DNA of 32,000 nt from Acaryochloris marina S15 (GCF_018336915.1 NZ_CP064925.1:90001-122000); one strand, 5' to 3'. Shown: positions 2,653 to 23,886, counted from the first letter of the stretch. Notes: generated by a model from the sequence alone, not told the origin. A program made the numbers and translations.

Positions 2653-5600
2653 TCACATCTCCAGTTCCTTATCCAGATTTACAGTTTGAGTAGGTTGAGA
2701 TTTATGCTGGAGCAGGAACAATCTGCGCTCAAACACTTTTGTGGAACGTCCTTTGTATAGCGCGTCCTGGTATGAGTGGGTAAAGTGAATCACTCCCTGG
2801 ATATACCGTTGTTTATCTTCAGGTGATTTCAGTTCTCTAGCGGCATCAGACTGCATCAGCACTCTGGTTCCATCCATTGCATCACCCTCACCTTGAGCGA
2901 TGAGATAGATGGCAATATCATTGTTGTGCTGTGGGTTCTCCCGACTTAATTTGTTTTTGATTTGGGTGTACTGCCCCCGGTAATGCATCTTGATTTCCCG
3001 GTCCATTGGATAGGCATTCTGGTCTGCCCGCTCAAAGGCGATGGGGCCATGATTGCCAATCAGGTCATCAACGCCTTTCCCCTGTTCAGGCTCCCACGGT
3101 ATTCTCCATGTCTTGCAGCCTCTTTCTTCAATGAGTTCAGCTTCTCTGACCATTTCACGCCGCACATTCCAGACCGTGGACTGCTCTGAATCCCAATCAT
3201 GGGCATACCTGAATTCTCTGCCTGGTGCAGCAAATACTTCTAGTTGAGGATGTAGCACCCTTCTTTCGAGTCGTTCGTCGTGCTGGTTCTTGGCCCGATA
3301 GCCAATGTTGACTCCCTGACCACCAATGACGACTCGACCTTGAGAGACTAATGCAGCATCTTTCTTATCCCCTTCAGTCCGGTAGATGGGAATTTCAGGG
3401 TGCTGGTAGACCGTGTACCAGAATCCCTTAGCTTTCTCCTCCTGTGTTTGGGTGACTCCATGCTTGGCAAAGATCTGCTTAGCGATGGGATCGGGAACGG
3501 GTTGGAATGCCATATCCCGGTCAAACAGTTTACGCTTGGCTCCCAGTGGGTTTTCATACTTGCGATATTTGGGAGGGGCATTGGGATTTTTTGTCCTAGC
3601 TCTGTGGGTTTTGTCTACATCGATACGGGGAGTATCAGGCTTGAAGGTTCCATACAGACTAAGCGTTGGCTCCTCATTGGGTCCTAGTCCTTCAAAGGTG
3701 AGTGGATCGACCCCAGCATCAGCCCACCAGCCCCCACCTTCAGCAAGTTCCTGATAACTCAACACTTCAGGATGAGACCGATCATTAATCAAGGCACGGA
3801 TCGGCTCGATGTGATACTGACTGCGAACCTTCTTGAAAGACCCATCCCTCCTGCGAGTGGCGATGTCTTCGATCTTGGCCCCCAGCAACCGATCAATCAC
3901 CTGATCATCAGCAATGGATTGGAGCCGAGCCTTAATCACATCGGGATGGGCGCAGCTAGACACCCATTCATCCCAATGCTTCTCATCAATGGTGTCAGGC
4001 CGCTCTACCCCGGTATAATCCGGTTTCCAGAACACCTGATCATCAATGGTCTTCGGCTTGGGAGTGACGCTTATGCCCTTGTCCGTCAACTGTTGAGCGA
4101 CTTCCTTAAGCTGTTCTGCGACTGGCCCATTTACCAGTGCATCGACTGAGCGCATCGACTTCACAGACTGGGCTAACTGCTGCATGGCTGGGAAGGTCTT
4201 CAGACTTCGCTGAAAGCGCACCACCAGATTATTGAGTTCACCAATGTGCTGAGCAATGGATTCATGTGCTCTCCACTCACTGACGGTATCGGCCAGCCCC
4301 TTGATTTTGGCAAAAGAATAAGTGGGGCGCTTGGCGTTAAACGCTTCAATCTGCTGGGTGATGGCCTGAAGTTGGGGCTGCACCTGAGTAAGAGATTGTC
4401 CCTGCTGGAGTTCGCTCACCACTTCGGCCAACTGATCCATGCCCTTAAACTGAATCTGCTGAGGTTCAGACAAGGTGTTGATTTGAGTGGTCAGTGCGGC
4501 CAACTGCTCAACCAAACCACTCTCAGCCAGAGCTTGTTCTTCATTGAGGTCATGCACATCCTGAGCTAGGTCACCCATATCTGGGAATTGGGGAATGGTC
4601 AGACTCTCAACTAAGTCCTGCACTTCGCCAATGGCAGCGGTAACCTCCACCTCGTTTTGCCAATCTTGGACGGCATCGACCAACTCAGCCATTGCGGGGA
4701 ATTTGACATCCAGAGATTGAGTCGCTTCCAAGCCAGCTTGTAATCGGATGATTGTCCGGTCTAGCCCTTCAGTACCTTGAGCTAGGACATCAACCATCTC
4801 AGTCACGGCATCAGCCAGCTCTTGACCAGATCGCCACTCTGCTACGGCATCAGCAATGCTCCTGATCCTCTGCTGGCTTAGAGTTTGTTCAATGTTCTGG
4901 TCAATGTGGTCAATAGATTGGGCGATATAAGTGAGGTTATGGCTGAGGTCTTGTTGGTCCCGTGCCTGAACAACAGTCTCAGCCAAGCCATCTAGGCCCA
5001 CAAAGGAATTAGGTTCTAAGTTCTGAGATAAGGTATCAACCCGTTGAGCAAGATCCAGTAATTGAGGCTCTAACCCAAGCTCTGCAAATTCCTGGCTTGC
5101 CTGCCATGCGATCACATCATCAGCGATACTCCTAAATTGCTGATGAGGGAGAGACTTCTCGATAGCCTGGTCAATGGCTTGGGTGATCTGAGTGAGGTTA
5201 TCTGCGAGGGCATCAGCAAACTGGTCTTGCACGACCCGATTTGCCAAACTATCCAAACCATTGAAGGAATTAGGTTTTAGACTTTGGCTGAGTGACTCTA
5301 TATCCTTAGCAAGGGTTAGCAGGTGATTATCCAACCCACTTGTTGCTAGCTCGTTCTCCTCAGACCACTGCATCACCCAATTTGCTAGGTCTGAGGAGGT
5401 TGACCCCCATTCTGTTGAGCGACTGTCTTGGGCTTGGGCTTGCCATTCTTGGACGCCTGATGCTTGACCCCCTGGATCTCCTCTGCGGCTTCCAATACCT
5501 TGTCGCTCATCGCGGCTTGGAGCATCGTTGAGTCTTCGATCTTCATCCCAAGATTGTCCATCGCCTTGGCGAGTTGCTTGATACTCTCGCTCATGTCCGA

Positions 5601-8475
5601 GGGCTTCTTGGCTGCCATTGCGTCCTTGAACTCCTGGATGAACAGGTTGAGAACGGCTTTGACCTCCATCGGGATAGTGTTGATCCGCTCCCTGACCTGG
5701 GACTTGAGTTCTCTGTTCTCGTCTAGGATGTGTTGGTTCTGAGCTTGGACTTCTTCGACTTGATTGGTCAGGATGGTGATCGCGTCCGTGAGTGGGGCTA
5801 ATCGGTCTCGAAGCTCGTCCACGATCTGCTGTTGTTGTTCGTTGATGTCCATAGGTTTCCTCAATTAGATCTAAAGCACTTTCTTGAGCGTTGGATTTTA
5901 CAACCCGTTTCTTCAGCTTTTCCAGGTTTTCGGTATAGATGGTCAGTTCATGTTCTTGGCGGGAAATATCGACTAGGAACGGCTCTCTGCTGGAGGTGCG
6001 GTCATTGGTGGTGATGACAATCGTCCGTTTCTTGCTGCCACTCTGGGAGCGGTAGGAAGTCCACACCCGGTCATACTCCAAGGCCAAGGGTTGAGTGAGG
6101 GGCACATCATGGGAGACTCCCTTATGGTCCCTGACCGTCATATTCAAACTATCCAGGGCGGTGACCGTGAGCTGCTGACCGTTAATCCAGTTGTTTTCCC
6201 GGATAGTTGTCGTCCACCGCAGCTTATCCCCGACTGCCACATCAAATTCTTGGGCACTGTAGACCTCCTTTTGCTTGTATTTAGCTGGATTGAATCGATA
6301 AAGCCGACCACCGAAGGAAGAGACTACCAGCTCATCCCCTTCGCATTTCTCCACCTTGTAAAGCTGTCCTCGCTTGATGGATGACGTTTTAGACGTTTGC
6401 AGTAGGCGAACGTAATCCCCTTTGCGATACCAATCCACCCGTCGTTTTTGCTCAATACTCAGGTTTCTGGATTTGAGCTGGACAATCTTGCTGGATTCCC
6501 CGAGTCGCCCAAGTTTCTTCTCCCCCCTGCGAATGGCCTTTTCAGCCGCGAGTCGTTCCTTGTTGGTCCCAGCAATAATCAGGGTTTGGTCTTGTTCGTT
6601 GGGAGAGAGGGCAAGGAACTGAGCTGCTGCGGCTTGGGTCATCTCAGTCTTATCGTCTGCCTCAATCACATACCCCTTGGCATTGAGGAGGTCCAGTGCT
6701 TTGAGTCCTTGACCTCTGGCGATGAGTTCAACGGCTTGCTTTTGGACATCAACCTTCTGCCTGACAATCTCCTCAATCCGGTGAGTGGTCGCTCCATTGT
6801 GCTGCATGAACTTGAAGGGATTGCCCGCTTCAATCGCGGAGTTCTGGCCCGCATCCCCTACGAAGATGACCTGTGCTTTGACTGCCTCTGCCTTTTCCAG
6901 AATCACCCGCATCTGTCTTCGGCTCATCATGCCCGCTTCATCAACCAGCCAGACTTGATTGGGGCTGTTATCAGCTTGATGCAGAACCAAATGCTCAACG
7001 GTGTTGGTGGCAATGCCTAACTCATCCTGGAGTTTCTTCGCTGCTGGGATAGTGGGACTAAAGCCCCGAATTGTTAGACCGGAGCCATTGAGTAAAGTCT
7101 TCAGTACTCCTAATGTTCGAGACTTGCCCACCCCTGGAAAGCCCTGCCAGATTTGGTAGCGGTCAGTACTAGTGAGGGTGTTGAGAACTGCCTTGGCCTG
7201 GTCTTCATTCAGTTCAACTGCAATCCCTAAGAGTGAGGGATTAGCAACCATTGGTTGAGCTTGATCTTGGCCTTCCATCCAGCGCTGATGGATCTGGGCT
7301 TCTTCTTCAACGGCAGTGACGGTGGTGAATCCCCGATCAACAGGGATTAGCTCTTTGCTTTGGCTAATGGCCTCATCCACCTGTTCCATCGCCATGCCCT
7401 GACGTTTGAGGGTCTTGAAGACATAGGCATAGATGTCATCCGTCTCAAAGATGGATGACCATTCAGCGTAATGACGGATGGCGCTTTCAACCTCATACCT
7501 GGCTCGGTCTGGGTCAGGCATTACGGCCAAAGGTTCAGCCAATACTGGATGACCCACTCCTTGAGAGTGAGCCTCATCCCGCCAATGGTCTTGGATGATT
7601 TCGAGCTTTTTACCCACGCCCCGCTTAGCCTTGCGAGTCGTCAACACTTTCAGCTTCTTATTCTCAGGAGTAACTTCTAGCCCTTCATCCCGAACCGCTT
7701 TGACGATGGCCCGATGACGCTTGCTGAAGACCTCGACATCGGAGCGGTTGTAACCCTCTAGCTCAAACCCATCCTTAGTTTCATAGATGCGATACCCCAG
7801 CCGTTGGACCTTCTCTGCTAACTTCTGACGGTAGAAGCTGCCTATCCACTTAGCTTTAGCCAGCTTTTCATGAGAGAGGGAGCGCCACTGACCATCTGGC
7901 CCCTGTGTCCCATTCATGAGCAGCATGTGGGTGTGAAGCTGCATGTCTCCATCACGGGAAGTATGGTGAGGCATCAGTGCCGCGATCATGTTGCCTGTAT
8001 TGACGACAGAGCGTACTCCATTTACTTGAATCCGAGTCTGGGCATACTCGCGCTCAAGTAACTCAAAGCTTTCTAGAACTGCCTCCATGTGGGCATCGAA
8101 TAAGCGATTGTCTCCTTCTAAGTGCAGTGCCATCGACACACTTTTAGGTGCAGACAAAGTAACGTCATGGGCCAGTCGTTCTTTGTCTTCCTCGTTGGGT
8201 TTCTTGCCCCGAATCCTTTGGACTGCACTACCAGCGACACCTTTTAAGGAGTCAGGCAAGAACCCTCGACTGAGCGCTTTGAAGTCCTCTCTTTTAACGT
8301 AGGTGCCTAACTTTTGAACAATCGCGTTGGAGCCGACCCAGACAGCAGTACTCATGCGGTCAATGTCAGAGACCGTCTCAGATTCACCGTAATAGCGCTC
8401 CACAGCATCTACGAGAGATTCATCTTCCTCGTAGTACTCGATCATGTCGCGTGTTATGGTCTGCATCGTCCGCAT
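2653..8475 (-). CDS. MOBF-family conjugative relaxase-helicase (TrwC/TraI-like) fused to a repeat region and a DUF3854/Toprim-like C-terminal domain
   Basis: N-terminus has paired Tyr motifs (EYYEED...ERYYGE), then WVGSN..KLG, LSAPKSVS and the His triad HHTSRDGDMQLHTH. The helicase has Walker A GFPGVGKS and Walker B WLVDEAGMM. The C-terminus has YRTEGDKKDAALVSQG..IGGQGV and GKGVDDL, which is Toprim-like. Confidence 0.85.
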   Translation of the reverse strand: MRTMQTITRDMIEYYEEDESLVDAVERYYGESETVSDIDRMSTAVWVGSNAIVQKLGTYVKREDFKALSRGFLPDSLKGVAGSAVQRIRGKKPNEEDKERLAHDVTLSAPKSVSMALHLEGDNRLFDAHMEAVLESFELLEREYAQTRIQVNGVRSVVNTGNMIAALMPHHTSRDGDMQLHTHMLLMNGTQGPDGQWRSLSHEKLAKAKWIGSFYRQKLAEKVQRLGYRIYETKDGFELEGYNRSDVEVFSKRHRAIVKAVRDEGLEVTPENKKLKVLTTRKAKRGVGKKLEIIQDHWRDEAHSQGVGHPVLAEPLAVMPDPDRARYEVESAIRHYAEWSSIFETDDIYAYVFKTLKRQGMAMEQVDEAISQSKELIPVDRGFTTVTAVEEEAQIHQRWMEGQDQAQPMVANPSLLGIAVELNEDQAKAVLNTLTSTDRYQIWQGFPGVGKSRTLGVLKTLLNGSGLTIRGFSPTIPAAKKLQDELGIATNTVEHLVLHQADNSPNQVWLVDEAGMMSRRQMRVILEKAEAVKAQVIFVGDAGQNSAIEAGNPFKFMQHNGATTHRIEEIVRQKVDVQKQAVELIARGQGLKALDLLNAKGYVIEADDKTEMTQAAAAQFLALSPNEQDQTLIIAGTNKERLAAEKAIRRGEKKLGRLGESSKIVQLKSRNLSIEQKRRVDWYRKGDYVRLLQTSKTSSIKRGQLYKVEKCEGDELVVSSFGGRLYRFNPAKYKQKEVYSAQEFDVAVGDKLRWTTTIRENNWINGQQLTVTALDSLNMTVRDHKGVSHDVPLTQPLALEYDRVWTSYRSQSGSKKRTIVITTNDRTSSREPFLVDISRQEHELTIYTENLEKLKKRVVKSNAQESALDLIEETYGHQRTTTADRGRASRPISPTHGRDHHPDQSSRRSPSSEPTHPRREQRTQVPGQGADQHYPDGGQSRSQPVHPGVQGRNGSQEALGHEREYQATRQGDGQSWDEDRRLNDAPSRDERQGIGSRRGDPGGQASGVQEWQAQAQDSRSTEWGSTSSDLANWVMQWSEENELATSGLDNHLLTLAKDIESLSQSLKPNSFNGLDSLANRVVQDQFADALADNLTQITQAIDQAIEKSLPHQQFRSIADDVIAWQASQEFAELGLEPQLLDLAQRVDTLSQNLEPNSFVGLDGLAETVVQARDQQDLSHNLTYIAQSIDHIDQNIEQTLSQQRIRSIADAVAEWRSGQELADAVTEMVDVLAQGTEGLDRTIIRLQAGLEATQSLDVKFPAMAELVDAVQDWQNEVEVTAAIGEVQDLVESLTIPQFPDMGDLAQDVHDLNEEQALAESGLVEQLAALTTQINTLSEPQQIQFKGMDQLAEVVSELQQGQSLTQVQPQLQAITQQIEAFNAKRPTYSFAKIKGLADTVSEWRAHESIAQHIGELNNLVVRFQRSLKTFPAMQQLAQSVKSMRSVDALVNGPVAEQLKEVAQQLTDKGISVTPKPKTIDDQVFWKPDYTGVERPDTIDEKHWDEWVSSCAHPDVIKARLQSIADDQVIDRLLGAKIEDIATRRRDGSFKKVRSQYHIEPIRALINDRSHPEVLSYQELAEGGGWWADAGVDPLTFEGLGPNEEPTLSLYGTFKPDTPRIDVDKTHRARTKNPNAPPKYRKYENPLGAKRKLFDRDMAFQPVPDPIAKQIFAKHGVTQTQEEKAKGFWYTVYQHPEIPIYRTEGDKKDAALVSQGRVVIGGQGVNIGYRAKNQHDERLERRVLHPQLEVFAAPGREFRYAHDWDSEQSTVWNVRREMVREAELIEERGCKTWRIPWEPEQGKGVDDLIGNHGPIAFERADQNAYPMDREIKMHYRGQYTQIKNKLSRENPQHNNDIAIYLIAQGEGDAMDGTRVLMQSDAARELKSPEDKQRYIQGVIHFTHSYQDALYKGRSTKVFERRLFLLQHKSQPTQTVNLDKELEM
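4090..5340 (-). repeat. degenerate tandem protein repeats inside the relaxase ORF (first two units are 87 aa / 261 nt)
   Basis: Unit 1 starts at 5340 (SGLDNHLLTLAKDIESLSQSLKPNSFNGLDSLANRVVQ...). Unit 2 starts at 5079 (LGLEPQLLDLAQRVDTLSQNLEPNSFVGLDGLAETVVQ...). Weaker copies carrying the F(P/K)(A/G)M..L(A)..V theme continue to about 4090. Confidence 0.7.
5385..5852 (-). CDS. nested +1-frame ORF inside the relaxase linker; 155-aa helical, coiled-coil-like protein (possible MobB-like accessory factor)
   Basis: The ATG at 5852 is preceded by GAGGAA and by in-frame TAG and TAA stops. The product has balanced, protein-like composition, while the relaxase frame over the same DNA is R/S/P/G/Q-rich low complexity. 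Confidence 0.5.
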   Translation of the reverse strand: MDINEQQQQIVDELRDRLAPLTDAITILTNQVEEVQAQNQHILDENRELKSQVRERINTIPMEVKAVLNLFIQEFKDAMAAKKPSDMSESIKQLAKAMDNLGMKIEDSTMLQAAMSDKVLEAAEEIQGVKHQASKNGKPKPKTVAQQNGGQPPQT

Positions 8476-8490
8476 GGGATGGCCTCTGGC

Positions 8491-8907
8491 TTAGCCTTCC
8501 AGATGCTTCAAGTAATCATCGACAGCGGCTTGATGTGCCTCATAAAGTTTTGGGTTTGCTTCGAGATGCTGTGCCATTGAGATTTTCTTGGATGCTTCAA
8601 CGGCAGCTATGAAGTCTACTTTTCTGACATAGGGACCGAGCTTCTTGACCAATGGGTTGGAGCCGACCCAGACAGCGGTAGTCATGGGGTCAATATCAGG
8701 CTCTACGCTCTGGATGTCATAGCCCAGTTCGCGACAAGCCTCTACCAGTTCGTGCTGATAAAGTCTCCTCCGATTACCAGGTTCAATCAGTTCTTTGCGG
8801 TAGAACCTCTTGAATTCCTCAGCCTCATCGACTGGATCATCAGCTTGGGAACGCATGAACCCTTGAGTGACTTGTTGCCAAAGTCTGGACAAGAAAGTTT
8901 TAAGCAT
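8491..8907 (-). CDS. degenerate paralogue of the relaxase N-terminus (138 aa)
   Basis: DIDPMTTAVWVGSNPLVKKLGPYVRKVDF and ISMAQHLEANPKLYEAHQAAV align to DIDRMSTAVWVGSNAIVQKLGTYVKREDF and VSMALHLEGDNRLFDAHMEAV of the relaxase. The DNA word TTGGAGCCGACCCAGACAGC is shared at 8327-8346 and 8657-8676. The YY motifs and the SAPKS segment are missing. Confidence 0.6.
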   Translation of the reverse strand: MLKTFLSRLWQQVTQGFMRSQADDPVDEAEEFKRFYRKELIEPGNRRRLYQHELVEACRELGYDIQSVEPDIDPMTTAVWVGSNPLVKKLGPYVRKVDFIAAVEASKKISMAQHLEANPKLYEAHQAAVDDYLKHLEG

Positions 8908-8970
8908 GGGAATACCTGCATGAATTTTTAAAAAGCGATTCCATCGACCACGGATGTGATCGTTCTCGTG

Positions 8971-9073
8971 AAAACTACAGAGATGCTACTGAGTACTACA
9001 GAGCGGAGTTACAAAACAACTACGGTTGTACTACGTGGTGTTACGAAAATGTTTCTGAATGTACTACGAAAAT
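8971..9073 (+). promoter_or_regulatory. iteron cluster; candidate parC-like centromere and/or part of oriT
   Basis: ACTAC starts at 8974, 8995, 9019, 9030 and 9063, plus a TTACG variant at 9041, giving spacings of about 11 or 22 nt. Longer words are each repeated twice: ACTACAGAG, GTACTACG and TACGAAAAT. The cluster lies between the relaxase operon and the ParM-like gene. Confidence 0.45.
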
Positions 9074-9223
9074 TTAGGGTCAGCCCGATCTGGGGATTTT
9101 CCGTTCCGGTGCCTCGGAGTGGTGATGGGTGTGGGAGCCTCAGCGACCCTCCAGAACCTCTTGAATCTGCCCTCAAAGTAGCACCATCTCTAGGATCCTT
9201 GCAAATAGGGCTTTCGAGTACCT

Positions 9224-9238
9224 AAACGACCCCCAATC
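9224..9238 (+). repeat. 15-mer AAACGACCCCCAATC, copy 1
   Basis: Exact second copy at 13502-13516. Both lie 60-80 nt upstream of the first gene of an apparent operon. Confidence 0.5.
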
Positions 9239-9260
9239 GACCCCTAAAAACGGCAATTTT

Positions 9261-9287
9261 GGGCGGGGGTATATTACCTTGTCTAAC
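9261..9287 (+). promoter_or_regulatory. conserved promoter/operator motif, copy a (GGGCGGGGGTATATTACCTTGTCTAAC)
   Basis: Member of a six-copy, same-orientation family. The TATATT hexamer lies about 30 nt upstream of the ATG at 9304. Confidence 0.55.
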
Positions 9288-9303
9288 TCAAGAGTTTTTC
9301 AAG

Positions 9304-10428
9304 ATGACTACAAAAATATTTTTGACGGTCGATGTCGGTGCAAGTTTGACCAAAGCCTTCTTGCAAATTGCAGCAGATGGCAAGCTTCCGATCGAGAAAT
9401 GCATCACCCAACCCTCTGCTGTTCTCAGAACAACTGAGAGCTTCTATGAGGAGATGGACCACGATAACTCTGCTCACAGTTCCCTCCTTTGCTATGGGGG
9501 GATGTACTGGCAGACGGGCCAGATTGCCGAATCCAATCTCAGGCAGACCAACACGGACCAGCACAAGCACCCGGAAGCGATTGCCAAGGTGCTGTCGATT
9601 GCGGGGTATGCCATTTCCAAGGCTGGCAACGGAGCTGAGATGTATTTGGACTTGCTGCTGCCGAAGAGTGAGGAGCCGAGCTTTACCCAGATGAAGCGAG
9701 ATTTGGCGAAGTACGTCAGCAAGTTTTGGTATGGGTCGAAGCAACTGACCTGTGCGCCGAAGTTTGTGAGGGTCTTACCTGAGAGTGCGGGGATTGTCTC
9801 GCATGTCCAGACCTATCCCTCGATCATTCTGATGTTTGGTCACAAGGACTTTACTCTGACGAAGATCAAGGATCAGCATAGTGGCTTGGCCTACATCCAG
9901 ACATGGGCAGGTCGAGGTTCGTTGATGATTCAGCGTCATATGAGCTGGACCCCCTCGAATGAGCTGACAGGTGCCAAGCTGGTGTTTTCACAAGGAACAG
10001 GTCAAAAAGGGCTTGAAAAGGCATTTGGGGATGAGGCTGGCCCTGTCGTGGCTTCCTTGCGCCAAGCCAGAGAACTGTACTGGGTGAATCTCCAGCAGCA
10101 ACTGAATAGTGACATTGATGTGGTGCAGGCCAAGCGCATCTATGTCGCGGGTGGTGGAGCGCCTGCCTGGTCCAAGCAACTCAAGGAATCCTTTAGCGGC
10201 AAATTAGACTTGCTCGGTTCAGTGATTCGCACCATTGGCCGAGAATTCCCAGAGTGGTCAAAGTCTCCGATGACCTACCGCCTGACGGATGCCTATCTGG
10301 TGTGGCGACAGAATGCGGATCGTCCTGAAACGCTGCAAACTCCGCCTACTCGCAGTGCCAAGACTCCTAAAACCACTAAGGCCATTAAGACAGCAAAGAG
10401 TGCAAAAGCGGAGGTGAGCAATGTCTGA
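9304..10428 (+). CDS. ParM/StbA-like actin-fold ATPase with a basic K/T/A-rich C-terminal tail
   Basis: The phosphate-1 motif FLTVDVGASLTK and the adenosine motif YVAGGGAPAW fit the actin/ParM fold. I prefer the ATG at 9304 because the upstream part of the tracked ORF is the regulatory motif. The tail reads TPPTRSAKTPKTTKAIKTAKSAKAEV. Confidence 0.6.
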   Translation: MTTKIFLTVDVGASLTKAFLQIAADGKLPIEKCITQPSAVLRTTESFYEEMDHDNSAHSSLLCYGGMYWQTGQIAESNLRQTNTDQHKHPEAIAKVLSIAGYAISKAGNGAEMYLDLLLPKSEEPSFTQMKRDLAKYVSKFWYGSKQLTCAPKFVRVLPESAGIVSHVQTYPSIILMFGHKDFTLTKIKDQHSGLAYIQTWAGRGSLMIQRHMSWTPSNELTGAKLVFSQGTGQKGLEKAFGDEAGPVVASLRQARELYWVNLQQQLNSDIDVVQAKRIYVAGGGAPAWSKQLKESFSGKLDLLGSVIRTIGREFPEWSKSPMTYRLTDAYLVWRQNADRPETLQTPPTRSAKTPKTTKAIKTAKSAKAEVSNV

Positions 10429-10828
10429 TATCTACTTCAAGGTAAAGACTCAGTGGAAACTCACCTCTGAGCGGGGGGTAATTGTCAAAACGGTTCGCAA
10501 TCACTACGGCCCTGGCCCCAGCTTCACCCGCCTATGTATGGACATTATGTTTTCGGTGCTGAAGGTACTGTCCGTAGCCATCCAAACTCGTAATCGAGCT
10601 GCGATTCAAGGAGCCATAGAGGTTTCCAAGGTTCAAGTTGAAGGCTATTACCAGATGGCTTTGGGGCTAGCTCAAGCGGAGGTGCAATTGCCCGTCATGG
10701 TTGAACCAGCACCAAATACCCCTGACGGACCATTACCAGCGGAAGTTGATGACCTTGGTGGTATATCCCCTGTGGATGAGTCACAAGTGGAATTCGAGGA
10801 ATTTGAACCGTTCGTTATGGATGACTGA
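10421..10828 (+). CDS. hypothetical protein; candidate ParR-like adaptor (by position only)
   Basis: 135-aa ORF whose start overlaps the upstream stop (ATGTCTGA), suggesting translational coupling. It has an acidic/hydrophobic C-terminus, VEFEEFEPFVMDD. Confidence 0.4.
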   Translation: MSDIYFKVKTQWKLTSERGVIVKTVRNHYGPGPSFTRLCMDIMFSVLKVLSVAIQTRNRAAIQGAIEVSKVQVEGYYQMALGLAQAEVQLPVMVEPAPNTPDGPLPAEVDDLGGISPVDESQVEFEEFEPFVMDD

Positions 10829-10881
10829 TTCAACGGGAGGGGGCATGTTCTCAAGTCCCCTCCACTGCCATAAAAACCCTC

Positions 10882-10902
10882 GGCGGTACATTCTTGTAGA
10901 CC
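10882..10902 (+). promoter_or_regulatory. conserved motif, degenerate copy f (GGCGGTACATTCTTGTAGACC)
   Basis: It shares GGCGGTA.ATT..TGT..ACC with the other copies and lies 20 nt upstream of the ATG at 10923. Confidence 0.4.
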
Positions 10903-10922
10903 AATAAATGGAGAAATAAACA

Positions 10923-11558
10923 ATGACGAATGCAACTGAACTAACCCAAACACTGGGCCTTGAGCAGAATGACCTCGACAAGCTGCTACGGGCTTGCGGG
11001 ATGAGCGAGGACGGCTATGACCTGGAAGCCCTGCAAGGTGTTCTCCAACTCAAGGCCGAAAATATTGCTGATACCTACACTCATGGCTGGTGCCTTTACA
11101 CTGCTGACACGTACAAGGTTGACCTCAAGCCCATCCATAAGGCGATTTCTGCTGAAGGGATTGAGACAGGTGATGACCTATACCACCCTCTGTTCACCCT
11201 CGTCTGTGAGCGGGTATCTGAGGAAGGGGTTGACCCCGTTGATGCGGTCAAGACCGAGTTGCAGGGCACCGATGAGCTTGAAGAAGAGGCCAGCCTCGAC
11301 GACATTGATCAAGTTGACGAGGGTATGAAACAGGCACTCAAGGCTGAGTCGCTTAGGACTGCCCGCCGAGTCGCCAGGAATGCTCACAAAACATCAGATC
11401 GGGTCGTGGCTGCTGCCCACCAGTTCCACATGAAGCAACTACGCCATGACCTCAAACAGGTCTTTGCCGAGGAATGGGCGAAGGAAGATGCCCAGGAAGC
11501 TCTTGAGGGCCAGTCGGAGCCGGGAAAGCTTTTGCCAGCCGAGGCCACGGAAGTCTAG
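10923..11558 (+). CDS. hypothetical acidic protein
   Basis: 211-aa ORF with an ATG start and the conserved motif upstream. No family recognised. Confidence 0.5.
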   Translation: MTNATELTQTLGLEQNDLDKLLRACGMSEDGYDLEALQGVLQLKAENIADTYTHGWCLYTADTYKVDLKPIHKAISAEGIETGDDLYHPLFTLVCERVSEEGVDPVDAVKTELQGTDELEEEASLDDIDQVDEGMKQALKAESLRTARRVARNAHKTSDRVVAAAHQFHMKQLRHDLKQVFAEEWAKEDAQEALEGQSEPGKLLPAEATEV

Positions 11559-11566
11559 AACGGCAG

Positions 11567-11884
11567 GTGCTGCTGGAGATGATGAACAGCCAATTCCAGG
11601 TGTGGGCGATGCAATCGAGAGAGGCCATCGCCACTAGAGAGCGGGCAATGATCCTCGCAGACCAGGAAGCCTTACGCGAAGCTGCCAAGAAGCGCAGAGA
11701 GTATGAGTACCGCATGGCACTGCTAGGCGATGTCAGCTACTGGGGCTGGCTGGTGGTGCTAGTCACCCTTCTCGCTGGGTTTTGTGGCTGGTGGCTGCGA
11801 GGAACCATCGCCCCAAGTTCGGCAAATAACAGTGGCGGTATATTACCTGTCACCAGTCAGCCAAATTCACAGGAGGTACATTAA
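11567..11884 (+). CDS. hypothetical single-pass membrane protein
   Basis: GTG at 11567 or ATG at 11579. One clear transmembrane segment (WGWLVVLVTLLAGFCGWWL). The 3' tail overlaps motif copy b. Confidence 0.45.
   Translation: MLLEMMNSQFQVWAMQSREAIATRERAMILADQEALREAAKKRREYEYRMALLGDVSYWGWLVVLVTLLAGFCGWWLRGTIAPSSANNSGGILPVTSQPNSQEVH
11831..11854 (+). promoter_or_regulatory. conserved motif, copy b (AGTGGCGGTATATTACCTGTCACC)
   Basis: As in copy a, CGGCAA lies exactly 13 nt upstream of TATATT. Confidence 0.55.
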
Positions 11885-11910
11885 TCCGTTACCTCCGACT
11901 AAGCAAATCA

Positions 11911-11935
11911 GGGCGGCGGTATATTATCCGTCACC
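11911..11935 (+). promoter_or_regulatory. conserved motif, copy c (GGGCGGCGGTATATTATCCGTCACC)
   Basis: It lies 80 nt downstream of copy b and 31 nt upstream of the ATG at 11966. Confidence 0.55.
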
Positions 11936-11965
11936 TTCAAACCATCTCATTAAGGAAAGAAAATT

Positions 11966-12478
11966 ATGCTTACCCAAGATAGACCCACTCAACCAAAACC
12001 TGAACTGTGGGTTGAGTCTCCATCCTCAAGTCAACTTTTTCTCAAACGCCTGATCCTCGTGAAGGCCATTGTTACCCCCTTGTGGAAAGACGAAGCCCGT
12101 CAACAGCTCCAATCGCAAGCTGACCAACTGGATGAACAGCTAGGCCAACTGGATGCCCAAGTTCAACAAATGGTTGGGGAGCTGAGCCAGCATACTGTCC
12201 AAATCCATCCAGAGGGCAGCTCCATTGCCCAGACCCAGACTCAAATCCAAGGTATCCAGGCCCAGGCCAATGAGCGTAAGGGCGAACTGCTGGAGCAAAA
12301 GACTCAGGTCTTGCAACAACTGGAGCAGATCGAAACTTTGGAGTTGGGCGAGGAAGTTGAGCAAGGCCAGGTCGATAACTTCTTCTATGCCAAGCAAGGC
12401 GACCATCTGATTCGCAAGATGCAGGTTGAGGTTGTGATCCGCGACGGCGTGATTGAAGAGATTCGGGGGGAGCTGTAA
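11966..12478 (+). CDS. coiled-coil protein, YlqD-like
   Basis: 170 aa. The N-terminal beta-like LILVKAIVTPLWKDEA, the Q-rich coiled coil, and the C-terminal KMQVEVVIRDGVIEEIRGEL resemble the YlqD family as I recall it. The family name is unverified. Confidence 0.5.
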   Translation: MLTQDRPTQPKPELWVESPSSSQLFLKRLILVKAIVTPLWKDEARQQLQSQADQLDEQLGQLDAQVQQMVGELSQHTVQIHPEGSSIAQTQTQIQGIQAQANERKGELLEQKTQVLQQLEQIETLELGEEVEQGQVDNFFYAKQGDHLIRKMQVEVVIRDGVIEEIRGEL

Positions 12479-12498
12479 TTCCTGCCTGCCTATTTCAA

Positions 12499-12524
12499 GG
12501 GAGGGTGGCATATTATTTTGCCCC
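12499..12524 (+). promoter_or_regulatory. conserved motif, copy d (GGGAGGGTGGCATATTATTTTGCCCC)
   Basis: Variant with a CATATT hexamer, 43 nt upstream of copy e. Confidence 0.45.
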
Positions 12525-12541
12525 TTCCCAACTCATCAACT

Positions 12542-12570
12542 GAGGGTAGTGGCATATTACTTTGTCACCC
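12542..12570 (+). promoter_or_regulatory. conserved motif, copy e (GAGGGTAGTGGCATATTACTTTGTCACCC)
   Basis: It lies 28 nt upstream of the ATG at 12598, which has an AGGAGA Shine-Dalgarno. Confidence 0.55.
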
Positions 12571-12597
12571 ACTCCACCAAAACTCAGGAGAAGACAT

Positions 12598-13023
12598 ATG
12601 TTAACTGAATTGAGTACAAGGACCGTCCCCAGACAACCCACAATCTTGGAAGAGTTGGGTTCAACGCTCAAGGTTGTTCTAGGTGCAATGTCTGTGAGCT
12701 GTGTTGTATTTGGCTTTCTAGCGGTTTCGCCTTATTTGATTGATGCCAAATGTTCTCGGCCTGGGTATACGCCCGTTACCCTAGCGCAGTGTTTACCAGA
12801 GTCTGAAGTCAAGTCCACGATTTGGGAGGCAAGAATCCCTACACCAATGGGAGGTTTCTATTTGGCTAAAGGAGAACCCATTGCCCAGGTATTTCCTCGG
12901 CTTTTCTCCCTGTGGCTTTTGACCCTTCCTACGGTGGTCGCTACTCATTCTCTAGGACGCTTCGTTTTTGTGAAGCTGGCATTATCTGCCGCTCAATCGC
13001 ATGAATCACGAGATCGTAAATGA
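12598..13023 (+). CDS. hypothetical membrane protein
   Basis: The ATG at 12598 has AGGAGA 5 nt upstream. Two or three hydrophobic segments are present. The longer tracked ORF start would run through motif copy e. Confidence 0.5.
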   Translation: MLTELSTRTVPRQPTILEELGSTLKVVLGAMSVSCVVFGFLAVSPYLIDAKCSRPGYTPVTLAQCLPESEVKSTIWEARIPTPMGGFYLAKGEPIAQVFPRLFSLWLLTLPTVVATHSLGRFVFVKLALSAAQSHESRDRK

Positions 13024-13033
13024 GGGACATCAA

Positions 13034-13435
13034 ATGACTGACCTACCCCCCACAGATGAAACCTTGAAAACAGAATCACTCTCGCCTTCCAGGGAAAGAC
13101 TCAAGCAGCGCTTGTGGATGCTGTTTGTTTGGTTCCCATTGGCGCTGCTAGTAGCTGGGATGATATTCACTTTTGTTGAAGCACCTGATTCCTGTAAGCA
13201 ATCGTTAGCCTGCTTCACAAGCTACACCCTCTCATCCGTGCAGCGAGGTCTAGGGCCAATTGTCGATCCAGTGGGGACGCTACTTTACGCTCCCGGTGTA
13301 GTAGCAATCCCATTAATCCTAGTAGTTGCCTATGTGTACTACTTCGTATTTACGACCATTTTGCAAGTGCTGTATGCCTTGCTTGAGGTTGTGATTGTTC
13401 TGCAAACGAGAGGGAGACAGGACGATACGGGGTGA
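13034..13435 (+). CDS. hypothetical membrane protein
   Basis: The ATG at 13034 is preceded by GAGGGA; an alternative ATG lies at 13001. Several hydrophobic helices are present (LWMLFVWFPLALLVAGMIF, VVAIPLILVVAYVYYFVF). Confidence 0.5.
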   Translation: MTDLPPTDETLKTESLSPSRERLKQRLWMLFVWFPLALLVAGMIFTFVEAPDSCKQSLACFTSYTLSSVQRGLGPIVDPVGTLLYAPGVVAIPLILVVAYVYYFVFTTILQVLYALLEVVIVLQTRGRQDDTG

Positions 13436-20983: not shown

Positions 20984-21811
20984 CTAGGCCGTTCTGGCCT
21001 TTGTAGCTTGGTCACTATTTTTCTGTAATTTCTTCATGGCTTTGTTGATGATTTGTCGAATCCGTTCCCGGCTGACGCCCAACTGTTGACCAATCTCATT
21101 CAATGTCTTGGGTTCGCCATCTTCTAATCCATACCGTTGGGTAATCACATAGCGTTGTCGTTCATCTAGTAGTGACAAATAACTGGATATCTCTTCACTC
21201 TTGTTCATCAGTTCAAGACAGGTGGGTGTCGAATGTTCCGCTTCAATCAGCTCCCCCAATGTTGTGTCTTGTTGATGCCCGACCCACATATCTAAAGAGA
21301 GAACATCTTGAAGATGTTGCATGTTCTTCTTCAGTTTGTCGAGGTCAATTTCCATTGCCTTAGCAATTTCTACAAGTGTCGGTTCACGACCAAATTCCTG
21401 AGAGAGTTGTCGTCGAGTCTGTTTGATTTTGTTGCCTGTCTGCCAGTGGCATGCAGGTAGACGAATCACACGGCTATTATTCTGTATGGACCGGGTAATT
21501 CCCTGTCGAATCCACCAATAGGCATAGGTACTAAAGCGATACCCTTGTTCAGGCTCAAATTTATCAACGGCTCTACTCAATCCGATGCTGCCCTCCTGGA
21601 TCAAGTCCATGAATGGCAAGCCTCGATTCTGGTGTTTTTTAGCAATGGAGATGACCAGGCGCAGGTTGCACTCGATCATCCGTTGTTTGGCTCGGAGGTT
21701 TCCAGCTTTGGCTTGTCTGGCAAGTTGGATTTCTTCTTCGTGGGATAGAAGGGGGTAGCGACCGATTTCTTTGAGATAAGTACCCGTACTGTCCGTATGA
21801 GTGACCATCAT
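20984..21811 (-). CDS. sigma-70 family RNA polymerase sigma factor (RpoD-like, short form), paralogue 1
   Basis: [16 protein letters not shown] (region 1.2), [28 protein letters not shown] and [16 protein letters not shown] (region 2), and [18 protein letters not shown] (region 4.2). The ATGATG start has GGAGGG 4 nt upstream. Confidence 0.9.
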
Positions 21812-22089
21812 CAAACCCTCCAAACATCGTTGATAGAGGAATACCCCGAAATGCCTGGTATGGGAATGGTCTTGTGTTATTTCTTAAGAAATGAGAGAGC
21901 TGAATAACAGGAAAAAACTGATAGTGTGTTGTGGTTCCTGCCAGTCATATTTGTGAGTTAGCGTTGCGAATTGATAAGCCATACTACCTAGTCTAACGAA
22001 TTCCTAGTGTCTTTGATGGGTTAGCTCAAGTCCTTCCCGTGTCTATTTCCTGATGTTTCTGGGTTGCTGTAAATACGGGGAATTCAATC

Positions 22090-23076: not shown

Positions 23077-23886
23077 CTAAGCAGATTGGGCGTACTTTTT
23101 TAATTGTTGGAAAGCCCTTTTCTCAATTTTGCGAACACCCTCCCGACTCATGCCGATTATCTTACCAATCTCTACTAGAGTTTTAGGCTGACCATCTTCC
23201 AGACCGAATCGTTGGCCAATGATGAATTGTTGCTGCTCACTCAGGTGCTCCATGAGTTTGGACAATTCATCCTTATTCATCAGATTTTCAAAGTATTTTT
23301 GGGAGGAATGATCCTTGGCAACGAGTTCGCCTAATGTGCCTCCCTGGTTTTCACTCACGAATTTATCTAAGGAGATAACCTCTTTAGGAAGTTGGAGCTG
23401 TTCCTGTATGTGAGTTGGGTCTATATCCATTGCATGAGCGACTTCAGCAAGAGATGGTTGACGCTCATATTGTTGGTTGAGTTGGTAGTAGGTATGTTTA
23501 ATTTTGCTGTTGAGCTGATTGAGGTGAATAGGTAGGCGAATCATTTTGGCCTTATTGTGCAATGCCCGTGTGATTCCTTGCCGAATCCACCAGTAGGCGT
23601 AGGTGCTGAACCGATAACCTTGCTTTAGGTCAAATTTCTCTACGGCTCGACTAAGCCCGATGTTCCCTTCCTGGATTAAGTCTAATAAAGGTAAGCCCCG
23701 ATTCTGGTGTTTCTTAGCAATAGAGATGACTAGTCGCAGGTTACACTCAATCATCCGTTGTTTAGCCCGTAGACTGCCCGCTTTCACTTGCCGAGCGAGG
23801 TTAACTTCTTCTTCAGAAGATAGAAGAGGATAGCGTCCTATCTCATTTAGATAGGAATGGAGACTGTTTTGTGTGGTGGCCATCAT
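23077..23886 (-). CDS. sigma-70 family RNA polymerase sigma factor (RpoD-like, short form), paralogue 2
   Basis: Shares an identical 27-aa run, [27 protein letters not shown], and [16 protein letters not shown] with paralogue 1. Region 4.2 differs ([18 protein letters not shown]). The ATGATG start has GAGGA upstream. Confidence 0.9.

Follow-up and report, generated by a model that had tools for sequence, protein, structure and literature searches.

The window analysed here, a stretch of 32,000 nucleotides from Acaryochloris marina S15 (GCF_018336915.1, NZ_CP064925.1:90001-122000), is part of an Acaryochloris plasmid with 94.5% identity to pMB01. Acaryochloris plasmids represent ~20% of the MBIC11017 genome (PMC11633204). 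The + strand codes for a ParM-like protein and, in an overlapping gene, for a small ParR-like protein, followed by orf211, orf105, a YlqD-family gene (ylqD) and orf141 (Table 1). The ORF starts at 9304, 10923, 11966 and 12598 given in an earlier note on this DNA agree with the ORF list. The ParM-like protein has 26-29% identity (tblastn) to plasmid genes annotated ParM/StbA. The ParR-like protein gave no match in the family search and neither of the two has a sequence match in the PDB. A probable oriT is found at 8905-9190, and the relaxase (mobF) bears a C-terminal DUF3854 (Toprim-like) domain. The region was compared with the sister plasmids pMB01, pREB3 and pREB1.

Table 1. Motif copies, hairpins and genes discussed in the text, with their positions in the window.
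Feature	Position	Strand	Details
Two to three 11-bp direct repeats	9221..9247	+	CCTAAACGACC / CCCAATCGACC; just 5' of copy a
Copy a, before ParM-like gene	9265..9285	+	GGGGG-TATATT; hexamer 9270-9275, 28 nt to ATG 9304; PWM 21.3 bits
ParM-like actin-type gene	9304-10428	+	Weak ALP_N match, E 0.0028, below cut-off
Small ParR-like gene	10421-10828	+	Overlaps ParM-like gene
Strong hairpin, 8 nt after parR-like stop	10836..10863	+	-20.0 kcal/mol, z -4.8; loop holds GGCATGTT (10842-10849)
Copy b, gene-proximal before orf211	10882..10902	+	GGCGG-TACATT; hexamer 10887-10892, 30 nt to ATG 10923; no hairpin (folding z +0.6)
Tandem array, three units	11834..11935	+	Cores 11837, 11875, 11918; spacing 38 and 43 nt; last hexamer 11920-11925, 40 nt to ATG 11966
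YlqD-family gene	11966..12478	+	PF11068, E 2.7e-38
Strong hairpin, 20 nt after ylqD stop	12499..12529	+	-20.5 kcal/mol, z -5.8; loop = copy e (TGG-CATATT, core 12507-12514)
Copy f, gene-proximal before orf141	12548..12569	+	AGTGG-CATATT; hexamer 12553-12558, 39 nt to ATG 12598
Short group-2-like sigma-70 paralogue, candidate reader	20984..21823	-	Region 2.4 canonical
Second short sigma-70 paralogue, candidate reader	23077..23886	-	Region 3.0 RLPIHLNQL

A short one-directional core motif, GGYGG-YAYATT, is found 28-46 nt 5' of the backbone genes. The six copies reported in the earlier note are all real and all on the + strand, each 0-6 nt 3' of where it had been placed (21-mers beginning at 9265, 10882, 11834, 11915, 12504 and 12548). 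Two more copies had been missed, one at 11872-11893 (GGAGGTACATTAATCCGTTACC) and a degenerate one within the hairpin that follows the ParR-like gene, which brings the window total to eight. On both strands of the window GGYAYATT has 9 matches versus 3.4 expected. Seven of them lie on the + strand within the 3.3 kb between 9268 and 12558, where ~0.18 would be expected (Poisson estimate ~1e-9), and the remaining 61 kb, both strands counted, hold just 2. The longer GGYATATTA occurs exactly 5 times versus 0.31 expected, a number reached in 0 of 100 shuffles. The clustering and common orientation first noticed from the sequence alone are borne out. The same clustering is seen in a whole replicon: when pREB3 (273 kb) was searched with a PWM that had no pREB3 training sequences, 15 of the 16 matches of at least 13 bits fell on one strand between 258,541 and 272,751, a 14-kb segment that makes up 5% of the plasmid.

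Several flanking sequences that had been described as parts of the motif do not belong to its conserved core. CGGCAA, said to stand 13 nt before the hexamer in copies a and b, is present at the copies 9265 and 11834 but not at 10882. The GGTA..TACC dyad is likewise a property of the copies 9265 and 11834 only (2 of 8 in the window), while GTCACC is found only in the arrays that precede ylqD and orf141, and the GGTGRC/GYCACC pairing is seen only in array copies. The copies are homologous units of 38-47 bp found in tandem arrays of 2-5, an organization that had been overlooked. In the window the array separates ylqD from the conserved part of orf105, and the orf105 stop codon (11882-11884) falls within its middle unit. 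In pREB3 and pREB1 this array consists of 5 units (TRF period 42-43). Copy f is present only where orf141 follows, namely in the window, pMB01 and pMB03.

Core positions were counted in 43 copies from six plasmids, including copies recognised solely by their place in an array. G-14, A-11 and T-7, the latter two being hexamer positions 2 and 6, are invariant in 43 of 43, even in the copies placed by the array alone (CAGATT, CATGTT, CATACT). G-13 and the GG at -17/-16 are nearly invariant too, over half of the copies have C-12, and the conserved stretch amounts to ~13 nt (C/A-TGGCGGTACATTA-C/T). The core is asymmetric, with no conserved dyad. With few exceptions the copies are of the type TGG-CAYATT or (C/G)GG-TAYATT. 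T-15 is found in 22 copies and 18 of the other 21 have T-12 instead; by state, 21 are TGG-C, 18 are non-T-GG-T, one has both thymines and three have neither, all three being the hairpin copy 3' of parR. The Fisher P of 4e-8 for this pattern is descriptive only, the copies not being phylogenetically independent. The -15/-12 state switches at four orthologous sites. One of them, the orf211 site, has C/T in the window, T/T in pREB1 and T/C in pREB3, the pREB1 state being a possible intermediate between the other two.

The same core stands in front of the same genes in pMB01, pREB3 and pREB1. In the sister plasmids it also precedes three transfer genes beyond the relaxase, which are the coupling-protein gene and two genes designated 'big' and 'small', with the hexamer ending 28-46 nt before each (measured in pMB01 for the coupling-protein gene). 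This distance to the start codon is kept at seven different genes and the copies are all co-oriented. The core is retained before coupling-protein genes with only 35% identity and before parM genes with 37% identity and different iterons. Copy a is kept in pMB01 and pREB3, and in pREB1 the same core is found behind different iterons; in this divergent intergenic region the motif is the sole block conserved beside the iterons. At the orf211 site three plasmids agree in the core and in the Shine-Dalgarno sequence but not in the intervening 9 nt. The motif is absent from the transfer and partition genes of pMB03, pMB04 and pREB7, including parMR of pMB03, and pMB05 carries it with no parMR nearby. 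Several copies occupy very short gaps in apparent operons or overlap coding sequence, as in the tail of orf105, in the coupling-protein gene and, in pREB3, at the 3' end of parR.

Two of the eight window copies are located in the loops of strong hairpins just 3' of stop codons, another feature absent from the earlier description. The hairpin after parR is conserved in pREB3 and pREB1, where its loop is GGCATATT. ylqD is followed by the hairpin copy in 6 of the 6 plasmids holding this gene, and 10 pairs are kept across the six with changes that are one-sided (G.U/G-C only). Two-sided covariation in the orthologous hairpins affects 0 of 10 and 2 of 12 pairs. Hairpins enclosing many of the copies are biased to the + strand (mean z -2.4 vs -0.9 on the other strand), and three of four intergenic regions fold with z of -2.3 to -2.6 on the + strand and of +0.1 to -1.2 on the - strand. 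For seven gene-proximal copies, no hairpin reaches significance. Those before orf211, 'big' and 'small' are hairpin-free (z -0.6 to +1.6) and still keep the core, showing that the hairpins are not required. No tRNA or tmRNA was found.

On balance the motif is probably the core of a sigma-70-type extended -10 promoter family with no usable -35. E. coli-type extended -10 (TGn) promoters without -35 have TG at -15/-14, one base upstream of the hexamer, and the same A2/T6 (PMC2613000). Sigma regions 3.0 and 2.4 contact TG at -15/-14 and T-12 in a partly redundant way (PMC2613000), and the alternative use of T-15 and T-12 in the motif resembles such contacts. A consensus scan found no -35/-10 pair on the + strand of the motif-bearing intergenic regions, and the ~30-50 nt before starts are also those of extended -10 promoters. 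The motif differs from these promoters in the near-invariant GG at -17/-16 and G-13, in the C-12 of over half of the copies, and in occurring, as duplicated units of 38-47 bp, in a single lineage of plasmid backbones. In its co-orientation, its short fixed start distance and its conservation while the flanks diverge, the motif behaves like the plasmid-specific promoter class suggested in the earlier note, whose interpretation is supported in part. The proposed regulon would extend beyond the partition genes, since the motif also precedes transfer genes in the sister plasmids.

For RNA polymerase holoenzyme YAYATT would be the -10 hexamer, whose A-11 and T-7 would be flipped out, and the G-rich GGYGG (-17 to -13) would serve as extended -10 element. 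Transcription would start ~7 nt 3' of the hexamer to give 5' leaders of ~20-40 nt carrying the Shine-Dalgarno sequences. Such promoters would head the successive units parM/parR-like, orf211-orf105, ylqD and orf141 onward and, in the sister plasmids, the coupling-protein gene and two further transfer-region genes. All copies may go back to a single 38-47 bp unit that was duplicated in tandem as well as to other genes, the arrays providing multiple start points. The two hairpin copies, possibly weak or decayed promoters, may close the preceding units, acting as terminators or as stabilisers of RNA 3' ends. Some observations fit this reading poorly. Tandem promoters every 38-47 bp are unusual and neighbours cannot hold polymerase simultaneously, the + strand-biased hairpins are needless for a promoter, copies are present in short intra-operon gaps or inside coding sequence, and simple compensation does not predict that T-15 and T-12 almost never coincide (1 of 43). 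Gene conversion between two sequence types could lie behind this near-exclusion.

The motif looks like a known kind of plasmid regulon signal rather than a new type of element. As in the KorA/KorB system of IncP RK2 and StbA/ArdK/KorA of IncW R388, one short motif precedes partition, maintenance and transfer operons, which in those plasmids joins them in a single control circuit; here it recurs before parM, orf211, ylqD, orf141, the coupling-protein gene and two further transfer-region genes. It is unlikely, if not negligibly so, that GGYGGYAYATTA is the operator of a dedicated plasmid-encoded DNA-binding regulator, either repressor or activator, that overlaps the promoters and coordinates the backbone genes, with the arrays giving cooperative or higher-occupancy control. 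Such an operator can coexist with a promoter. It would account for ~13 conserved nt, which exceed what polymerase contacts alone usually fix, for the restriction to one backbone lineage and for arrays of up to five copies. However, the conserved positions are exactly the -10 hexamer plus G-14, the copies before parM and transfer genes are as a rule single and isolated, the array spacing of 38-47 bp follows no single helical phase, and no candidate binding protein tracks the motif, the ParR-like protein included. Operators of the Kor type are palindromic, are recognised by dimeric repressors and vary in position and orientation, while the motif is co-oriented, promoter-like and at fixed distance. 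A palindromic operator like those of the kor system, to which the earlier note compared the motif, is not supported, given the asymmetry of the core and the lack of conservation of the dyad.

The + strand hairpins, which are stronger owing to G.U pairs, would fit an RNA-level element of one or a few polycistronic transcripts, in which small AYAUUA hairpins, placed between cistrons and in 5' leaders, act as processing sites, stability barriers or protein-binding sites. This seems improbable. Every copy is in sense orientation, three of four intergenic regions fold better on the + strand, and the arms vary yet stay complementary (GGAGGTA/TACCTCC, GGGAGGG..CCTTCCC, GTGGCGGTA..TACC-GTCAC). The context of the core is nevertheless inconstant (a loop of 3 or of 14 nt, or a position half within a stem), the hairpin-free copies and the near-lack of two-sided covariation count against it, no Rfam family was matched at E <= 1 in 8800-13200, and the divergent intergenic region with the parM copy must hold a promoter. 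The stems after parR and ylqD (9-11 bp, ~-20 kcal/mol, conserved) resemble extragenic GC-rich 3' hairpins such as U-tract-less terminators and REP-like stabilisers, from which they differ by a promoter-like core in the loop, the lack of a U-tract and their presence only twice per locus and not genome-wide.

The tandem arrays are very improbably the parC centromere of the ParM/ParR-like system, or replication iterons, with the single copies as outliers. As in parC of the type II ParMRC loci of R1, pSK41 and pB171, direct repeats adjoin the gene of an actin-like ATPase and a small gene 3' of it, one motif copy overlaps the presumed parM promoter, and copy number differs from plasmid to plasmid, as it does in iteron arrays. 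The repeats of parC are 6-20 bp long, tightly phased, ParR-specific and found at the par locus only, whereas the motif has an irregular period of 38-47 bp, precedes unrelated genes including transfer genes, is present in pMB05 and missing at parMR of pMB03, and was seen in no AT-rich or DnaA-box context. It is unchanged while the ParR-like proteins diverge to 26-28% identity between plasmids and the separate adjacent 10-11 bp iterons change with them. The repeats at 9221..9247, for which pMB01 has ACAAACGACCG x2 and which give way to GGGGATTTGT x5 in pREB1 with its diverged ParR-like protein, are a better candidate for parC centromere/operator of this pair. Single-strand signals on the transferred strand (priming sites or early-conjugation hairpins), suggested by copies on one strand either side of mobF, the probable oriT, the relaxase DUF3854 domain and hairpin potential, are hardly credible because they leave the 28-46 nt start-codon distance and the -10-like conservation without reason, several copies are hairpin-free, many stems rely on G.T pairs that are weak in DNA, and gene orientation explains the strand bias equally well.

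Within the promoter reading, a dedicated reader is suggested by the extra GGYGG conservation and by the motif being limited to one lineage. The best candidates are the short sigma factors borne on the plasmid, whose region 3.0 is non-canonical. The paralogue at 20984..21823 has the region 3.0 sequence RLPACHWQT versus RLPVHLYET in cyanobacterial SigA. The ParR-like protein, among the readers proposed earlier, is unlikely to fill this role since the window and pREB1 proteins are 28% identical and have different iterons beside the same motif. It is doubtful that the Acaryochloris megaplasmids run a private transcription system in which their own short sigmas, devoid of the usual Glu (and often of the His) with which region 3.0 reads the extended -10 TG, specifically recognise GGYGG-YAYATT promoters. 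Were it true, partition, ylqD-module and transfer genes would run via the plasmid sigma, insulated from host promoter competition, and the tandem arrays would let that holoenzyme enter, or would titrate it, with high capacity.

Should the motif prove to be a working promoter class, it would provide a first handle on how large Acaryochloris plasmids coordinate maintenance and transfer genes, and a compact 13-nt element for testing with the many plasmid-borne sigma paralogues of the genus. The copies would then also be candidate native promoters for genetic tools in chlorophyll-d cyanobacteria, alongside the terminator-like hairpins. For annotation, the motif explains wrong start/stop calls near these genes and the spurious repeat peptides GGILP and AVYY.SP, pointed out in the earlier note and present in the ORF list.

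The motif GGYGG-YAYATT combines a -10-like hexamer, YAYATT, with GGYGG at -17 to -13. An earlier note had reported six co-oriented copies upstream of ORF starts. All six exist on the plus strand, 0-6 nt downstream of where they had been placed, and two further copies had been overlooked, one at 11872-11893 and a degenerate one, GGCATGTT, at 10842-10849. GGYATATTA occurs five times in the window against 0.31 expected, and GGYAYATT nine times against 3.4, seven of the nine lying on the plus strand between 9268 and 12558. The earlier observation holds and can be extended. The spurious repeat peptides GGILP and AVYY.SP are also present in the ORF list; neither the GGTA..TACC dyad nor the GTCACC tail is general, each belonging to some copies only. 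Likenesses to the NtcA box (GTA-N8-TAC), the cyanobacterial LexA box, the DnaA box, a Xer/dif arm and the R388 nic region were dropped on sequence inspection, as was an HLR1/RpaB half-site (GTTACATT compared with GGTACATT), whose second half-site is absent.

Over 8900-13100 the window matches plasmid pMB01 of Acaryochloris sp. 'Moss Beach' with 94.5% identity. The A. marina MBIC11017 plasmids pREB3 and pREB1 are more distant relatives, and pMB03 and pMB05 are related to parts of this segment only. Further along the window are found two short sigma-70 paralogues, pentapeptide proteins, a cyAbrB gene and insertion sequences. PDB sequence searches with the ParM-like and ParR-like proteins gave no usable match. 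Many cyanobacterial chromosomes carry a conserved gene of which the plasmid YlqD is a paralogue (48-61% identity; compared sequences L008-L017); on the conjugative plasmid backbone this copy stands behind its own putative promoter array.

Features of the motif locus, compared sigma factor genes and placement of the core
Feature	Position	Strand	Hexamer end to start codon (nt)	Remark
MobF/TrwC relaxase	2653-8475	-
Short paralogue of relaxase N-terminus	8491-8907	-
ParM-like actin-type gene	9304-10428	+	28
Small ParR-like gene	10421-10828	+		overlaps parM-like gene
Hairpin	10836-10863			GC-rich stem, loop holding motif copy; directly after parR-like stop; -20.0 kcal/mol, z -4.8
orf211	10923-11558	+	30
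orf105	11567-11884	+		membrane helix
YlqD-family gene	11966-12478	+	40
Hairpin	12499-12529			GC-rich stem, loop holding motif copy; directly after ylqD stop; -20.5 kcal/mol, z -5.8
orf141	12598-13023 onward	+	39	followed by run of plus-strand genes
Coupling-protein gene, pMB01			28
'big' gene, sister plasmids			41-43
'small' gene, sister plasmids			46
Sigma paralogues, window	20984-21823, 23077-23886	-
Sigma paralogues, plasmid sequence L022	35138-35944, 43801-44622
Sigma paralogue, pREB1 (L024)	195-1001
Sigma paralogue, plasmid sequence L025	7054-7878
Sigma paralogue, plasmid sequence L026	13092-13916

Base counts were taken per position over 43 copies from six plasmids, copies that are not independent of one another and that include some recognised by their place in an array alone (CAGATT, CATGTT, CATACT). 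Hexamer positions 2 (A) and 6 (T) and the G at -14 are invariant (43/43 each), G at -13 is found in 42 of 43, and hexamer positions 1 and 3 are variable. Across the set a T at -15 and a T at hexamer base 1 (-12) almost never occur together: TGG-C... is found in 21 copies and C/G/A-GG-T... in 18, one copy carries both T's and three carry neither, all three being the hairpin copy after parR. The -15/-12 state differs between plasmids at four orthologous sites, and the T/T form of pREB1 at the orf211 site could be an intermediate between the two states. The TGn element and the -10 hexamer can each stand in for the other, and for a -35 element; no -35/-10 pair was found on the plus strand at these sites by simple consensus scan. 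In sigma-70, Q437 and T440 of region 2.4 contact -12, and H455 and E458 of region 3.0 contact the -14 G:C pair of the TGn element (PMC2613000). The layout matches that of an extended -10 promoter. For the -15/-12 pattern, gene conversion between two sequence types is another possible source.

The motif is best explained as a family of extended -10-type promoters specific to this plasmid backbone. The family would have spread as 38-47 bp units, single and in tandem, and would be placed ahead of the partition, ylqD-module and transfer genes in one Acaryochloris plasmid lineage. Shared promoter or operator motifs of a plasmid backbone regulon are a kind already known; the present member appears undescribed, a literature search having found neither a start-site map nor a description of the motif.

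The copies of the window, pREB1, pMB03 and pMB05 were used to build a 15-nt weight matrix, which was scanned over all 273,121 bp of pREB3. At 13 bits or more it gave 15 matches on one strand, confined to 258,541-272,751, and one match elsewhere. This 14-kb stretch comprises the partition/ylqD module and the transfer genes across mobF. The new copies precede the coupling-protein gene, the 'big' gene (752 aa) and the 'small' gene; the motif is found at all three sites in pREB1 and at two of the three in pMB01, whose coupling protein shares only 35% identity with the pREB1 and pREB3 counterparts. The pMB03 backbone lacks the motif, its sole copies lying in the ylqD-orf141 segment, the only part common to pMB03 and the window (89.6% identity). 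The coupling-protein loci of pMB04, pREB7 and the Planktothrix plasmid p1 likewise lack the motif. A contig scan with YlqD as query matched pREB1, pREB3 and chromosomal cyanobacterial ylqD loci, none of the latter with the motif, and no additional Acaryochloris species. One copy, CTGGYGGCATATTAG, is kept inside the coupling-protein coding sequence (pREB3 271742, minus strand; pREB1 372175, minus strand, L024 32176); an internal promoter is one possibility, chance conservation of coding sequence another.

The parM copy and two copies before ylqD form a 38-nt repeat family with 63-71% identity. Copies are spaced 41, 38, 43 and 44 nt in the window and 38-47 nt across plasmids, with a single 77-nt gap in pREB1. 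The array upstream of ylqD has five units in pREB3 and pREB1 (Tandem Repeats Finder periods 42 and 43), and three units precede orf211 in these plasmids (period 45 in pREB3). Tandem Repeats Finder reported no array at the motif locus of the window, whose arrays are too short; it was in pREB1 and pREB3 alone that they showed up. When a 79-nt double unit was compared by BLAST with 72,556 plasmids, only the three ylqD-upstream arrays matched, and the short core was therefore tracked by weight matrix. Upstream of orf211 the core and the Shine-Dalgarno sequence are conserved in three plasmids and the nine intervening bases are not. The C-terminal tail of orf105 (...SSANNSGGILPVTSQPNSQEVH; window 11826-11884) is coded by the repeat array and varies in length among plasmids, the stop codon lying inside the middle unit. 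Homology between the window and pMB03 starts at 11949 (L004 5001), directly past the array, which therefore marks a recombination breakpoint between plasmid backbones.

Four other readings remain, progressively less likely. The first is a dedicated regulator overlapping the promoters. The ParR-like protein, proposed earlier as a reader, is an unlikely one: identity between the window and pREB1 proteins is 28% and the adjoining iterons differ, with the motif unchanged, and the ParM proteins of pREB1 and pMB03 are 57% identical, with the motif in pREB1 only. Candidate readers under the preferred promoter explanation are the plasmid sigma factors, group-2-like proteins that score below the TIGR02997 cut-off. 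Their region 2.4 is canonical and region 4.2 mostly so; the Glu of region 3.0 is replaced in seven of seven short plasmid paralogues compared (Q, Q, Q, Q, D, N, Q), and the His is variable and often replaced, where cyanobacterial SigA has RLPVHLYET. A canonical -10 reading combined with a non-canonical extended -10 head may suit the unusual GGYGG of the motif, which is a lead. This sigma family occurs on at least 12 Acaryochloris plasmids sharing cells, pMB03 with its motif-free backbone included, so that its presence cannot discriminate it as reader.

An RNA-level role of the hairpin-forming copies is less likely than a regulator. Both post-stop hairpins are kept in every plasmid having parR-like or ylqD, respectively, and many other copies are enclosed by weaker hairpins, the plus strand being favoured through G.U pairs (mean z -2.4 against -0.9). 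Consensus folding of the two strong hairpins shows conservation with almost no two-sided covariation, and an RNA structure is therefore possible; scans for Rfam families (window 8800-13200) and tRNAs gave no match. Copies before orf211, 'big' and 'small' keep the core without a hairpin, and the structural position of the core varies from copy to copy. For these reasons, together with the scant covariation, the hairpins are treated as a second feature, separate from what the motif itself means; they are probably transcription-unit ends or RNA 3' stabilisers.

A centromere or iteron role is less likely still. Directly before its parM-like gene, pREB1 carries five 10-bp GGGGATTTGT repeats (L003 1856-1907), followed by the motif; these repeats are classical-looking parC, and at this site the window carries A(A/T)CGACC repeats. 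The segment 8905-9190 upstream of parM hardly varies among the window, pMB01, pREB3 and pREB1 despite the diverged parMR of pREB1, and downstream of it pREB1 diverges completely except for the motif.

Least likely is a signal of the transferred strand. The segment 8905-9190 itself sits between the divergent relaxase and parM operons and is therefore probably oriT. Within it, GGTGATGGGTGTGGGAGCC (about 9118-9140) presumably resembles an F-type nick region, and ACTAC-type repeats lie at 8969-9073. The relaxase (1940 aa) has TrwC, AAA_30 helicase and C-terminal DUF3854 (Toprim-like) domains set apart by a long, repetitive, low-complexity linker. The adjacent ORF 8491-8907 resembles its N-terminus (weak TrwC match, E 5.5e-4) and looks like a truncated relaxase paralogue at the position expected for a relaxosome accessory gene.
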